DNA from: an uncultured Longilinea sp.
GTDB lineage: Bacteria > Chloroflexota > Anaerolineae > Anaerolineales > Anaerolineaceae
Assembly (NCBI GenBank): GCA_964536805.1
Contig: CAZHYQ010000011.1
Location: forward strand, 17,305 to 81,304
Length of the DNA stretch: 64,000 nucleotides
Reading direction: 5' to 3'
The position numbers and the translations under genes are program-made. The notes beneath the pieces were generated by a model. It made no database searches. It was not told where the DNA came from and saw nothing but the letters and a program-made list of their open reading frames with translations. This document shows positions 40,366 to 44,142 of the stretch, piece by piece. The first letter of the stretch is position 1. Each line of letters starts with the position of its first letter.

Positions 40366-41214
40366 TCAGCCTTTTTCGATGGGGGCGCCGACCAGATTGC
40401 CCCATTCGGTCCAGGAGCCATCATAATTGCGGACATTGCTGAAACCCAACAGGTATTTCAGCACAAACCAGGTGTGCGAGCTGCGTTCGCCTATGCGGCA
40501 ATAGGCGACGGTTTCTGCACCTGGGTCAAGGCTGTTTTCAGCCTGATACAGTTGGGCTAATTCTTCGCGGGATTTGAAGGTACCCGTAACCTCGCTAATC
40601 GCCTGCGACCAGGGGATGTTCCGGGCACCAGGTATATGTCCTCCGCGCATGGCGCCTTCCTGGGGATAGTTGGGCATGTGCAGCAGCTCGCCGCTGAATT
40701 CGCCTGGCGAGCGGACATCGACCAGGGCGCCGTTCCTGTTGATGTGCGCCATGACCTGGTCGCGGTAGGCCCGGATGGATTGGTCCGGTTTGGACGCCTG
40801 GTAGGATGTCGGTGGGTAAACTGGAAATTCCATCGCGATCGGCCGGTTTTCCTTGAGCCATTTCATTCGGCCGCCGTTGAGGATTTTGCATTCAGAATGC
40901 CCGTAGTATTTGAACAGCCAAAAGGCATAGCAGGCAAACCAGTTGTTACGATCGCCGTAAAAAACCACAATTGTGTTGCGATCGATGCCCAGGCGGGAAC
41001 AGAGGTTTTCAAAAGCCGGCTCATCAATAAATTCCCGTCTGACCGAATCCTGGAGGGTGGTAAACCAATCAACTTTGACCGCTCCAGGAATATGACCAGT
41101 GTCATAAAGCAGGTAATCTTCATTTGATTCGACGATCCTGACTTTCGGATCGGATAAATGTTGGGCTACCCATTCCGTTTCCACCAATACTTCTGGTCGG
41201 GCATAACCGATCAT
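40366..41214 (-). CDS. Tandem-rhodanese sulfurtransferase (SseA/CysA-like)
   Basis: [33 protein letters not shown], active-site loop YCRIGER, and NYDGSW.EW. Confidence 0.95.
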
Positions 41215-41313
41215 GGTGAACTCCTTCTGGAGAGATTATTATTGATTATATTTATGATAATAGTATAAATAATTGCCCTTTGAAAGTCAAGTAATATTCC
41301 TTGAAATTGGTAC

Positions 41314-41365
41314 TTGAAAATATGTTCTATCCGTGTATAATATGGATAATAGAATAAATATTCTA
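41314..41365 (+). promoter_or_regulatory. sigma70 promoter with two LexA-like boxes
   Basis: TTGAAA (41314-19), 16-bp spacer, TATAAT (41336-41). GAAA-ATAT-GTTC at 41316-27, and the perfect palindrome TAGAAT-AAAT-ATTCTA at 41350-65. Confidence 0.65.
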
Positions 41366-41375
41366 AGGTGACCCT

Positions 41376-42176
41376 ATGACAATACCTGATTTACTCCAAG
41401 TTCGTCCCGCTGCTCCAACCCGACTCGATTTGAGGGTTTCCAGACAAAACCACGCCGCCAATCCCTTTGCACGGTTATCTCTCGAAGGATTATTGAACCA
41501 ACATCCATACCTGCCGGAGGAAACGGCGGTCCTCGGCATTTGCGACGACGGACTTCCAGTTCTGTTGGATTTCACTGATCCAATGCCCGGTTCTGTTCTG
41601 GTAGCCGGGTCGCAATTGACAGGATCGAGGCAGCTGCTTCAATTGGTGCTTTCATCCACCCTGCGCCGGACAACATCCCATGGCATGGATGTCCTCGTTG
41701 TATCGCAGGATCCGGCTGCCTGGCAATCTGTAATTAATAAGCCTGGCAGACATCATCTTGAGATTTTACCCATTTACGACCGGATTTCCGGGGTAGCCAT
41801 TCTTCATCTCAGTCGCATGTTGGAACAGCGCATGAATGGAAGGTCACGCAGTGAGACGGCATTTTTGTTCATTGACGATGTTCAAAGTGTTAGTCAATTG
41901 GATCTGGATGTTCAGGTAAATCTACAATGGCTTATCGACCAGGGTCCCCAATACGGCATTTGGTCATTCGCCGCGATGGCCGCAAATGGCATGGAAAAAT
42001 TCGACTCATTTGTGCCATCCTTCCGGACTCGGATTCTTGGCCAGGTGGACGAACCAGGGCTAACCGCCCGGTTGGCAAATGTACGGTCACTTGACACTAC
42101 AAAATTTCACCCCTCGCAGCAGTTTTGCGTCAGGATCAAACATAATTGGATGAATTTTTGGCTTCCAGGCCAGTAA
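41376..42176 (+). CDS. Degenerate FtsK/SpoIIIE-like (EccC-type) P-loop domain protein
   Basis: AVLGICDDGLPVLLDF..P.PGSVLVAGSQLTGSR aligns with the FtsK-domain start but the Walker A Lys is lost. Walker B-like FLFIDD and QGPQYGIW. Confidence 0.65.
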   Translation: MTIPDLLQVRPAAPTRLDLRVSRQNHAANPFARLSLEGLLNQHPYLPEETAVLGICDDGLPVLLDFTDPMPGSVLVAGSQLTGSRQLLQLVLSSTLRRTTSHGMDVLVVSQDPAAWQSVINKPGRHHLEILPIYDRISGVAILHLSRMLEQRMNGRSRSETAFLFIDDVQSVSQLDLDVQVNLQWLIDQGPQYGIWSFAAMAANGMEKFDSFVPSFRTRILGQVDEPGLTARLANVRSLDTTKFHPSQQFCVRIKHNWMNFWLPGQ

Positions 42177-42188
42177 AGGAAGGGTAAG

Positions 42189-42416
42189 ATGGAAACAGGC
42201 ATGTTATGGTTCGATAATGATCCGCGCAGCGATTTGCCAGCAAAAGTGACTCAGGCAGCCGATTATTACCAGAAGAAATATGGCAAGAAACCGGATGTAT
42301 GTTTTGTTCACCCGAGTGCCGTCAAGGAAGAGCAGCGCTACAATGGCATTGCCATCCGGCGCAGCCAAATGGTTTTGCCAAATCATCTTTGGATCGGTTT
42401 ATTGGAGCATGCATAA
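42189..42416 (+). CDS. Conserved small hypothetical protein (75 aa)
   Basis: AAGGAAGGG RBS, 12 nt after the upstream stop. Ordered-looking sequence WFDNDP...AADYYQKKYGKKPDVCFVHP...VLPNHLWIG, followed by a terminator. Confidence 0.8.
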   Translation: METGMLWFDNDPRSDLPAKVTQAADYYQKKYGKKPDVCFVHPSAVKEEQRYNGIAIRRSQMVLPNHLWIGLLEHA

Positions 42417-42424
42417 GTCTAGAA

Positions 42425-42452
42425 AGCCGCTGGTTGACCAGCGGCTCTTTTT
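42425..42452 (+). terminator. Intrinsic terminator closing the two-gene operon
   Basis: Stem AGCCGCTGG/CCAGCGGCT with loop TTGA, then CTTTTT. Confidence 0.8.
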
Positions 42453-42455
42453 GAC

Positions 42456-43457
42456 TTATTCCCCCGCTTCATTTCCTTTTTTATCTTCCGAGGGTTTTTC
42501 AGGTTCAGGGCCGGGCAATTCCCGGTTATCTGAAAAAATGCTTCCAATCAGTTTAAATAAATTGGAAAGGTGGCGAAACCGGGTTGAAGCATAAGCTTCG
42601 GTAAAGTGTTGCGCGGCGTCCTGCAGGCTGACATCCTGATGCATCTCTTCGCGCAAATACCAAAGGTGTTCAATGATCCACAAATAAAGGTCTGCTTCGG
42701 TCCGGCCCGGGAATTCCTTTAATGTACCCTGTTCGCGGATCACCTTGACCAATGGGAGATAAACGTCATCATACCAGGAGATGGTTGCGTCCTCGAATGA
42801 GGCCGGATGGTTCCACTGCTCGCCCATGAACCATCTGTGAGTCTCAATGTGTTCGATCAGCTTGTTATAAACGCCTGGCAGCGATAATTCAACCTTCGCC
42901 TCTGGCCGAAGTAGGGACAGGTGAGTGCGTTCCTCAAATTCCTGTTTTTCGACTTCACGAATAAAGTCGTCAATATTCGTCGTTTCATCCACCGCGACCG
43001 GAGTTTCGATTTCGATGACATAGGCATCAATATCTGCCTGCCCCCGCTCCCTTGCGACCGACACGCGGTGATTTCCATCTTTGACGAAGTATGCTTCGCC
43101 GATTTTATAAACTTCGATGGGTGGAAGGATGACATCCTGCAGATGCGCCATGTCAATGCTGACCCAACGCGAACTGAGTTCCGAACGGCGCGGAAGGAAG
43201 GCCCGATCGAAATCCTGGTAGCGTCCTACGCTGCCGACGATTTTGTGTACTGGGACCTGGCGCATGCCCAAATAATGTTGTCCCTGAAAAGGCAGTAATC
43301 GGCGCACTTCATCAAAGGGCAGCAGGCTGTTATCTTTTCCATTAAACCACGTCGAAACTGAACGCCAGAATCCTTTTCGCAAAGCCACGTCAAAATCCGA
43401 TTTGGCAGTCTGAGAAACGATGGCGCTTATTGAATTCGGTTTGCTCTCATCAGACAC
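42456..43457 (-). CDS. ParB/Sulfiredoxin-like N-domain plus DUF4032-like C-domain protein
   Basis: IVGSVGRY.DFDR.FLP, LPPIEVYKIGEAYFVKDGNHRVSVAR (ParB/Srx G.HR motif), then a helical C-domain with SWYDDVYLP and TEADLYLW. Confidence 0.75.
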   Translation of the reverse strand: MSDESKPNSISAIVSQTAKSDFDVALRKGFWRSVSTWFNGKDNSLLPFDEVRRLLPFQGQHYLGMRQVPVHKIVGSVGRYQDFDRAFLPRRSELSSRWVSIDMAHLQDVILPPIEVYKIGEAYFVKDGNHRVSVARERGQADIDAYVIEIETPVAVDETTNIDDFIREVEKQEFEERTHLSLLRPEAKVELSLPGVYNKLIEHIETHRWFMGEQWNHPASFEDATISWYDDVYLPLVKVIREQGTLKEFPGRTEADLYLWIIEHLWYLREEMHQDVSLQDAAQHFTEAYASTRFRHLSNLFKLIGSIFSDNRELPGPEPEKPSEDKKGNEAGE

Positions 43458-43491
43458 TTCTCACCTCCATTCAACCGGTCGTGCAGCCGGT

Positions 43492-44142
43492 TTACCGAAG
43501 TTTAGGGCGCCGGGGAACATTGATATAAAATTCCCGGTATCCGAAAGTGTTCATAACCAGGGTATTTTCAAATTGTGTTTGTGTCACCGTATCCTGGCGG
43601 TAAACATGAATATGACCATGCAAATGCACCTGGGGCTTAAACACATGGTCAAACCAGCGAAATGCCTTCACGCCCTGGTGTGGCCGATCTTCCATATCGT
43701 GAATTTTCCAGGGTGGTGCGTGGCTGACGAACACATCGAGATAACGGCCATACAGCAACTTGTTGAAGAATAAGGCTGGCGTCATCTTCCAAACCATCAT
43801 CCACATTTCAGCCTGTGAATACTGGTGCGGCCCGAGGTTGTATTGTATGGTGCCTTCCATGCCTGCCAGCAAGAGACCAGTATCGTCCTGTATGACCTTG
43901 TTGTGCAGGTTGATCGCTCCCCAGGGTTCAGTGCGCTCGCCCATGGATGTCAATTCAACCTTATTGGCATGGTTGCCCCGCACATGGTAAAGGGGGACGT
44001 TGAGTGAGCTGATGATGTATTCGAGGTAATAATAAGGTAAATCGCCGCAACTGATGACAAGGTCAACGTCGTAAAATCGCTCGGCAATTTGCGAGCTATA
44101 AATAATACGGAGTTCAACGTCACTTACCGACAGGATTTTCAT
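43492..44142 (-). CDS. Calcineurin-like metallophosphoesterase
   Basis: LSVSD, SCGDL, VRGNH, VSHAPP and LHGHIH motifs. Confidence 0.9.
   Translation of the reverse strand: MKILSVSDVELRIIYSSQIAERFYDVDLVISCGDLPYYYLEYIISSLNVPLYHVRGNHANKVELTSMGERTEPWGAINLHNKVIQDDTGLLLAGMEGTIQYNLGPHQYSQAEMWMMVWKMTPALFFNKLLYGRYLDVFVSHAPPWKIHDMEDRPHQGVKAFRWFDHVFKPQVHLHGHIHVYRQDTVTQTQFENTLVMNTFGYREFYINVPRRPKLR

Follow-up and report, generated by a model that had tools for sequence, protein, structure and literature searches.

What does a two-gene unit that joins a seemingly inactive FtsK-like ATPase domain to a 75-residue protein do behind a pair of LexA-like boxes? While the SOS regulons of Proteobacteria, Firmicutes, and Actinobacteria have been charted in detail, those of Chloroflexota, a large, mostly uncultured phylum of filamentous bacteria, have hardly been mapped. 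We addressed this question in a stretch of 64,000 nucleotides (nt; hereafter, the window) from an uncultured Longilinea sp., which is part of contig C11 of a 3.18-Mb Anaerolineaceae assembly (G000) in the genus that contains Longilinea arvoryzae. An earlier note made from the sequence had singled out positions 41314–42452 (plus strand) as a self-contained transcription unit, and we found all of its parts in place: a TTGAAA-16-TATAAT promoter, two LexA-like boxes, open reading frames (ORFs) of 266 and 75 amino acids (ORF1 and ORF2), and a terminator. We are fairly confident that the ORF1–ORF2 unit represents a LexA-repressed bicistronic SOS operon, a judgement that covers its regulation and architecture only. 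In this respect, computation supports the note's proposal of a lineage-specific two-gene operon controlled by LexA boxes.

The argument for LexA control starts from the repressor of the host. The genome contains one recA and one lexA gene, the latter retaining the catalytic Ser/Lys dyad (GESM, TLKYF). We gathered the lexA and recA upstream regions from 30 relatives and found a GAAC-N4-GTTC-type motif between the –35 and –10 boxes in the lexA promoters of 27 relatives and the recA promoters of 14. Nearly all of these lexA promoters read TTGACA, then (A)GAAC-N4-GTTC(G), then the –10 box, while in the recA promoters TGAAC-N4-GTAC is fused to the –10 box. It follows that the clade uses the LexA motif of Gram-positives and Dehalococcoides, which bears out what the note had assumed. 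The lexA promoters of the family possess a second conserved element past the –10 box, GCACAAATGA(A/C)CGATAAT, likely a weaker second operator. From 34 non-redundant lexA and recA operators of the relatives we derived a symmetrised 16-nt matrix and scanned the whole genome with it. Apart from the operon, the top intergenic sites precede recA, lexA, uvrB, uvrA, a NurA gene, a DUF5131 gene, and several unknown genes (Table 1). Recovery of recA, lexA, uvrA, and uvrB makes this a sensible SOS regulon, and several of the flagged genes are predicted to be further, unannotated SOS members.

Both boxes of the operon were scored with this matrix, as the note had suggested. Box 1, the operator-like site over the –35 box (GAAA-ATAT-GTTC), is one mismatch away from GAAC-N4-GTTC and reaches 17.26 bits. 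This places it seventh genome-wide, with only nine sites in the 3.18 Mb attaining at least 16 bits, and ranks it above the genome's own lexA operator (15.41 bits) and below the recA operator (19.07 bits). Box 2 starts ~8 nt past the –10 box and covers the expected transcription start. It had been described as a perfect palindrome, which holds for its perfectly complementary 6-nt arms and not for its non-palindromic 4-nt spacer. LexA operators occupy the –35 box and spacer as well as the transcription start, so that RNA polymerase would be blocked by bound LexA.

Conservation, too, speaks for an operator function. In four congeneric species, the –35 box, spacer, and –10 box are nearly invariant, whereas the respective ORF1 proteins are only 48–70% identical; unchanged in all four are CTTGAAA(A/T)TATGTTCTAT, the –10 box, and the TAGAA and ATTCTA arms of box 2. 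The centre of box 2 varies among these species, one of them having TAGAACTTATATTCTA at this place (12.4 bits). In other genera of the family, boxes that are exact or have one mismatch lie in the promoters of the orthologous operon; the usual arrangement is TATAAT with TAGAAC-N4-GTTCTA after it. The two-box layout recurs as well, the second box often lying between the –35 and –10 boxes. Exact GAAC-N4-GTTC occurs in 12 of 30 orthologous loci. Searching spans of 300–400 nt, we found sites of at least 14 bits upstream of 24 out of 31 operons that begin with ORF1 (contig ends truncate two of the others) and upstream of 14 out of 20 stand-alone ORF2 genes. The same was true for nine of 15 distant ORF2 relatives in other Chloroflexota classes (ten at a threshold of at least 13 bits), whose canonical boxes include TAGAACATATGTTCTA. 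Only 0.4% of 3712 control upstream regions of this genome contain such a site, which corresponds to a ~150-fold enrichment of operators at the orthologous promoters.

Some observations count against LexA control. Both boxes deviate from the exact consensus (GAAA..GTTC and GAAT..ATTC); box 2, at 9.99 bits, is at chance level when taken alone, given that 133 sites in the genome reach 10 bits; and the LexA self-cleavage site is Ala-Ser (GRIVA-SAPIP) instead of the usual Ala-Gly, although both variants are found among the LexA proteins of relatives. One might take the boxes for A+T-rich promoter palindromes or the sites of another regulator, and the gene pair for a constitutive housekeeping unit beside frr, uppS, and acpS. 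The departures from the consensus would fit this explanation, as would the location of the operon within conserved housekeeping synteny. Yet it would have to account for a box 1 that outscores the lexA operator, for the exact GAAC-N4-GTTC that orthologous promoters of other genera, orders, and classes have in this position, for the enrichment over control regions, and for a matrix that recovers known SOS genes. We therefore consider it very unlikely, and LexA control of the operon very probable.

Which of the two genes does the operator serve? ORF2, a single-copy gene, was found in 124 of the 151 genomes of the family (66 of 74 genera), while ORF1 was detected in 66 of them. Almost all ORF1-positive genomes (62 of 66) also encode ORF2, the four exceptions being members of one genus with a long form of ORF1; conversely, 62 family genomes have ORF2 and lack ORF1. 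At 20 of these ORF2-only loci, the ORF1 profile gave no match, and ORF2 adjoins frr and uppS and has a LexA box of its own. Wherever ORF1 and ORF2 both exist and the contig allows, they are adjacent and co-oriented (25 of 30 family loci), with ORF2 starting 10–150 nt past ORF1. Both boxes, too, are kept across the genus. Beyond the family, profile searches identified ORF2 in 88 of 401 Chloroflexota genomes (47 of 218 genera), and a library of 1.84 billion proteins contained 2389 clusters of it at 50% identity. The gene preceding ORF2 varies by lineage (FtsK-like, DUF6504-like, or none). ORF2 itself stands behind the operator in every case, either downstream of such a gene or as the sole one.

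These distributions reverse one proposal of the earlier note, namely, that the 75-residue protein is the small partner of the FtsK-like one. ORF2 is no accessory of ORF1: the number of genomes that contain it is about double, it frequently stands alone behind a LexA box of its own, and its distribution spans the phylum. Rather, the gene maps identify it as the conserved core of the unit—a putative phylum-wide SOS gene—and the FtsK-like gene as an optional upstream partner. Sequence conservation follows the same pattern, with 55–60% identity among ORF2 relatives across the family as compared to ~30% among ORF1 relatives.

We next turn to the proteins themselves. The AlphaFold model of ORF1 (predicted local distance difference test score, pLDDT, 86.8; predicted template modelling score, pTM, 0.84) retrieved EssC, EccC, the FtsK motor, and TcpA from the PDB by Foldseek, at expectation values (E) of 2e-10 to 1e-8, a probability of 1.0, and query-normalised TM-scores of 0.6–0.68. 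By sequence, the ORF1 family profile matches EccC5 and EccC (E ~1e-8). The FtsK/EccC outline that had been noticed by eye is hence borne out; KaiC and RAD51 paralogs appear among the structural neighbours only at E 2.5e-5 or weaker, the main neighbours being of the FtsK/HerA type. For the protein of the window, Pfam gave no match even at E values up to 1, and its sole NCBIfam match was EccCb, at 13.9 bits against a cut-off of 346. Among 58 relatives, 35 match Pfam FtsK_SpoIIIE (PF01580) at E 1.8e-8 or weaker, and a profile search returned more than 2700 relatives of ~260 amino acids in Anaerolineae, many with weak FtsK_SpoIIIE matches.

ORF1 comprises the core domain only. Residues 1–35 are disordered, a membrane segment or hydrophobic anchor is missing (as the note had claimed), and so is the gamma (winged-helix) domain. 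In some genera, the protein bears a long, Pro-rich disordered N-terminal extension; such extensions are all of low complexity and returned no Pfam domain. A Walker-B-like FLFIDD is kept and the C-terminal motif NW.NFWLPG is invariant, whereas the Walker A position reads GSQLTGSR, without the Lys and Thr of the G-x4-GK[ST] found in relatives. On this model, ORF1 is predicted to be a soluble FtsK/EccC-type RecA-fold domain that, in this genus, would be unable to bind ATP through a normal P-loop, and the degenerate P-loop implies that it acts by binding and not as a motor. The label "dead ATPase" is thus apt for this and some other lineages; it does not extend to the whole family, in which many members have an intact Walker A motif (GK[ST] in 15 of 31 sampled relatives). 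A tree of 31 family members shows three to four independent losses of the P-loop signature, with LexA boxes and partner gene retained, which indicates that ATP turnover is dispensable for whatever selection maintains.

Could the operon nevertheless encode a soluble DNA translocase comparable to B. subtilis SftA or to SOS-transcribed E. coli ftsK, which after SOS induction would clear damaged chromosomes from division sites or resolve them there, ORF2 being its targeting subunit? In favor of this, ORF1 matches the FtsK motor in fold, an intact Walker A occurs together with a Walker-B-like hhhhDD motif in about half of the family, some members have the long Pro-rich linkers typical of FtsK, and ftsK itself is under SOS control in E. 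coli, via the promoter dinH. Against this, ORF1 as found here cannot be a motor, which excludes the idea for this genus; the P-loop was given up at least three times with LexA control and partner gene kept; gamma and membrane domains are absent; and two full-length FtsK proteins are encoded elsewhere in the genome. Overall, we find a translocase very improbable.

The resemblance to EssC, EccC, and the coupling protein TcpA raises another thought, that the pair is what is left of a system for secretion or of a mobile element (an EccC/EssC-like or conjugative coupling ATPase plus its small substrate), or else an anti-phage defence pair. Degenerate EccC domains do bind small substrate proteins. 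Yet we found no membrane domain, tandem ATPase domains, WXG100-like partner, or nearby secretion genes, nor any match in PADLOC, PHROGs, or phage records; a phage or plasmid origin of the pair was dismissed on the last of these grounds. Moreover, the operon occupies a fixed, vertically inherited position on the chromosome. This explanation can be given next to no credence.

ORF2 has more than 190 homologs at 45–93% identity, with GMLWFDN, YY.KKYG..P..C, and H.W.G as invariant motifs. Its model (pLDDT 87) is a small soluble beta-alpha-beta4 domain. Searches of Pfam, NCBIfam, PHROGs, and PADLOC assigned it to no family, and the best fold match in BFVD was a weak one to an uncharacterised phage protein (E 2.5e-3). 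Three candidate assignments were tried and rejected. A nuclease was suggested by faint PDDEXK_10 matches in seven of 59 members (E 0.02 or weaker), but the catalytic residues are not conserved (the Glu of "GIEVR" is Ala here), so this reading was discarded. A metal site formed by Asp9, Cys38, His41, and His66 is no family feature, since Cys and His are replaced in distant members. Finally, ORF2 is not a divergent ImuB-C domain: aligned by hhalign against 22 DUF6504 sequences, it obtained a probability of 0.2%. Neither protein of the operon gave a SulA- or ImuA-type match in Pfam or NCBIfam, and in the absence of homology the likeness to these two effectors that the note had drawn is one of concept only.

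Relatives of ORF2 in other Chloroflexota provide clues to function. In the family f46 (L135–L142; e.g., L135:2498–4369), the ORF2-like domain forms the N-terminus of proteins of 305–624 amino acids, the remainder being a basic Ala/Pro/Lys/Thr low-complexity tail, and most of these genes have a LexA box upstream. One further metagenomic member ends in a Lys/Ala-rich tail. All long C-terminal tails are of low complexity and returned no Pfam domain; their basic character suggests association with DNA or the nucleoid. Five of the long f46 proteins end in Q-x-x-L-W, ~15 residues, and then RRK-x-A, and the former element could be a clamp-binding motif, which it resembles.

In other lineages, ORF2 has a different companion. 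All seven genomes of the family f49 (e.g., L143:1530–2222 in G211) harbor a DUF6504 gene directly before the ORF2-like gene, behind a 19.6-bit LexA box. At one locus of the family f33 (L145:1045–2204 in G389), it is a DUF6504-like gene that comes before the ORF2-like one, the LexA box scores 21.7 bits, and this operon is divergent from mraZ. In the succession of LexA box, DUF6504, and ORF2-like gene, the small protein appears to have another conserved type of operon. Of 14 control genomes, only Caulobacter gave a match to DUF6504, and the conserved pattern of DUF6504 fits the published ImuB-C domain (PMC3765255; PMC12926913), which binds the RecA-fold protein ImuA (PMC12926913). The equation of DUF6504 with ImuB-C is an inference from this pattern.

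These companions bring up a role in lesion tolerance, as a mutasome-type accessory under the same LexA control: ORF1 would be an ImuA-like scaffold, and ORF2 an adaptor that recruits a translesion polymerase or RecA to damaged DNA, either by itself or together with a stand-alone ImuB-C-like protein. Besides the DUF6504 operons, the basic tails and the possible clamp-binding motif are consistent with this idea, and ImuA offers the analogy of a dead RecA-fold scaffold. The host genome, moreover, contains a stand-alone DUF6504 gene and a single Y-family polymerase gene. On the other side, this DUF6504 gene has no recognisable LexA box, none of the ~50 Anaerolineaceae loci examined has a DUF6504 gene in or near it, and the operon lacks a polymerase gene. 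An ImuB-type fusion was not detected in the genome (dnaE2 was not searched for), ORF1 is of the FtsK/EccC and not of the RecA/ImuA type, and ORF2 is unrelated to DUF6504. On balance, we rate lesion tolerance as possible and rather doubtful.

A second set of neighbors points elsewhere. In 14 genomes of the families f33 and f81, the distance between the ORF2-like gene and mraZ, with which the division and cell-wall cluster begins, is 0.4–2.9 kb, and the orientation is divergent wherever this was checked; in one more genome the distance is 5.6 kb and the orientation the same. Based on the FtsK homology, this mraZ neighborhood, and the pattern of small lineage-specific SOS inhibitors, we tentatively favor a role in division or segregation. 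ORF2 may bind a conserved, DNA-proximal cytoplasmic target and couple chromosome damage to division or segregation, with the FtsK-like protein as optional scaffold or decoy—a reading that we hold to be plausible and short of probable. A more specific version, of which we are less sure, has the ORF2 family as a Chloroflexota SOS checkpoint effector that would halt septation or partitioning via a conserved divisome or segregation component and that, in Anaerolineaceae, would act along with a dead FtsK copy as decoy or scaffold for the real FtsK.

Several facts argue against a division effector. In the genome studied here, ORF2 lies away from the division gene cluster; it lacks the membrane segment that most small SOS division inhibitors have; its fold found no significant match in the PDB (E 0.95 or weaker); and its partnering with DUF6504 elsewhere points to lesion tolerance instead. 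The genomic context offers hints in two directions, division and a mutasome-type function, and is decisive for neither.

If the operon follows the established SOS pathway, its mode of action can be outlined as follows. In uninduced cells, LexA on both boxes would keep the strong promoter off. Upon DNA damage, RecA filaments would form and trigger LexA self-cleavage, whereupon both genes would be expressed together and a burst of the ORF1 and ORF2 proteins released. ORF2 would then bind a highly conserved cytoplasmic target, with ORF1 assisting as scaffold or decoy.

Table 1 Features of the operon, its flanks, and related loci elsewhere in the genome. Plain positions refer to the window; the prefix C denotes other contigs of the assembly.
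Feature	Position	Strand	Details
Sigma-70-type promoter	41314–41319 (–35), 41336–41341 (–10)	+	–35 TTGAAA, 16-nt spacer, –10 TATAAT; 11 of 12 consensus positions
LexA box 1	41314–41329		TTGAAAATATGTTCTA, GAAA-ATAT-GTTC; overlaps –35 box and spacer
LexA box 2	41350–41365		TAGAATAAATATTCTA, TAGAAT-AAAT-ATTCTA; over predicted transcription start
ORF1	41376–42176	+	266 amino acids; ribosome-binding site AAGGTGA
Intercistronic spacer	42177–42188	+	12 nt; contains ORF2 ribosome-binding site AGGAAGGG
ORF2	42189–42416	+	75 amino acids; starts 12 nt past ORF1 stop
Intrinsic terminator	42425–42452	+	stem 42425–42446 of 9 bp (7 G-C pairs), 4-nt loop, then CTTTTT
Rhodanese gene	40366–41214	–	upstream flank, divergent from operon
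DUF4032 gene	42456–43457	–	downstream flank, convergent with operon
Predicted SOS site, unknown 182-aa gene	C6:146788		20.2 bits
Predicted SOS site, LuxR-type regulator	C6:147312		15.8 bits
Predicted SOS site, unresolved locus on C7	C7:83738		20.2 bits
Predicted SOS site, DUF5131 gene	C30:1082		18.9 bits
Predicted SOS site, unknown 137-aa gene	C21:21698		18.1 bits
Predicted SOS site, NurA-domain gene	C35:1745		14.2 bits
Predicted SOS site, uvrB	C3:200365		15.1 bits
Predicted SOS site, uvrA	C31:12392		11.8 bits
lexA gene	C20:39237–39956		
Stand-alone DUF6504 gene	C2:44815–45180		
Y-family polymerase gene	C6:158237–158671		404-aa open frame

The operon is surrounded by genes for rhodanese, NifU, frr, uppS, DUF4032, and acpS, and the locus of the cultured relative L. 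arvoryzae, in which LARV_03207 and the gene downstream of it are the orthologs, shows full synteny with this region. The divergent promoter region of the rhodanese gene (41238–41273) contains an imperfect inverted repeat, ATTATTGATTATATT / AATAGTATAAATAAT, of which the portion GTATAAATA is unchanged across the four congeneric species. This repeat could be an operator of rhodanese and NifU, or merely their –10 region (TTGACT-17-TATACT, minus strand). On the other side, the convergent pair at 42456–44142 encodes the DUF4032 protein and a metallophosphoesterase; it is syntenic in L. arvoryzae, and we saw no link to the SOS operon. Elsewhere in the genome, an exact GAAC-N4-GTTC (TAGAACTAATGTTCCT, 14.8 bits) covers the start of mraZ (C10:8002–8017), just downstream of GTGGGA repeats. 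It overlaps the Met-Phe codons (ATG TTC); we set it aside as a LexA site and regard it as probably coincidental, despite its place at the head of the division gene cluster.

Our analysis provides a testable LexA regulon for one member of the Chloroflexota. Among the most conserved genes of this regulon is one for a 75-residue protein that has neither annotation nor known fold and yet forms ~2400 public sequence clusters. Its upstream partner in many genera, an FtsK-type domain repeatedly giving up ATP binding, is a natural example of a motor domain becoming a binding module. Knowing the target of the small protein would reveal how the phylum ties DNA damage to division, segregation, or lesion tolerance; it would also enlarge the SOS repertoire by an effector of a new kind.

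How does the operon compare with known systems? Full-text literature searches retrieved no paper describing the operon, an SOS regulon of Anaerolineae, or DUF6504, and to our knowledge no SOS regulon described so far includes counterparts of the two genes. The promoter, by contrast, has close parallels. It shares the GAAC-N4-GTTC motif with promoters under Gram-positive-type LexA (the Cheo box; e.g., B. subtilis lexA, recA, and yneA) and with Dehalococcoides LexA; as in Cheo-box promoters, the operators overlap the –35 and –10 boxes and the transcription start, and lexA promoters here and elsewhere likewise have two operators. The extended consensus is TAGAAC-N4-GTTCTA, from which both boxes have degenerated in this genus.

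Among FtsK-family proteins, E. coli ftsK (dinH) is similarly tied to the DNA-damage response, and the soluble B. subtilis SftA demonstrates that an FtsK-like protein can work without a membrane anchor, as ORF1 would. Unlike both, ORF1 consists of the core ATPase domain only—without membrane domain, without the gamma domain that reads KOPS (FtsK-orienting polar sequences), and without the Walker A lysine—and cannot pump DNA. The D2 and D3 domains of EccC/EssC from type VII secretion are the best fold and profile matches to ORF1; they, too, are degenerate and act by binding small proteins, not by hydrolysis. ORF1 differs in being a single cytoplasmic domain under LexA control that is not accompanied by membrane segments, WXG100 substrates, or secretion genes. 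The smeA-sffA unit of Streptomyces also pairs a small protein with an FtsK-like ATPase, yet SmeA is a membrane protein, the gene order is reversed, control is developmental and not by SOS, and SffA keeps its ATPase motifs.

The ImuA-ImuB(-C)-DnaE2 mutasome is LexA-controlled like the operon and combines a RecA-fold, often ATPase-dead protein with a small non-catalytic adaptor, whereas ORF1 is FtsK-type and not ImuA-type, ORF2 is unrelated to ImuB-C, and a polymerase gene is not part of the operon. The division inhibitors SulA, YneA, SosA, ChiZ, DivS, and SidA are likewise small, lineage-restricted, LexA-controlled, and usually unannotated, and the position of ORF2 family genes beside mraZ in other Chloroflexota adds to this likeness. 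ORF2 has no sequence or fold similarity to them—it is not SulA-like and, in contrast to YneA, SosA, ChiZ, and SidA, has neither a membrane segment nor a LysM domain. Each of these systems shares one trait with the operon and fails on others. Regulation of the operon, as read from its promoter, would be that of an ordinary Cheo-box SOS circuit, and the putative effectors under its control are undescribed ones.

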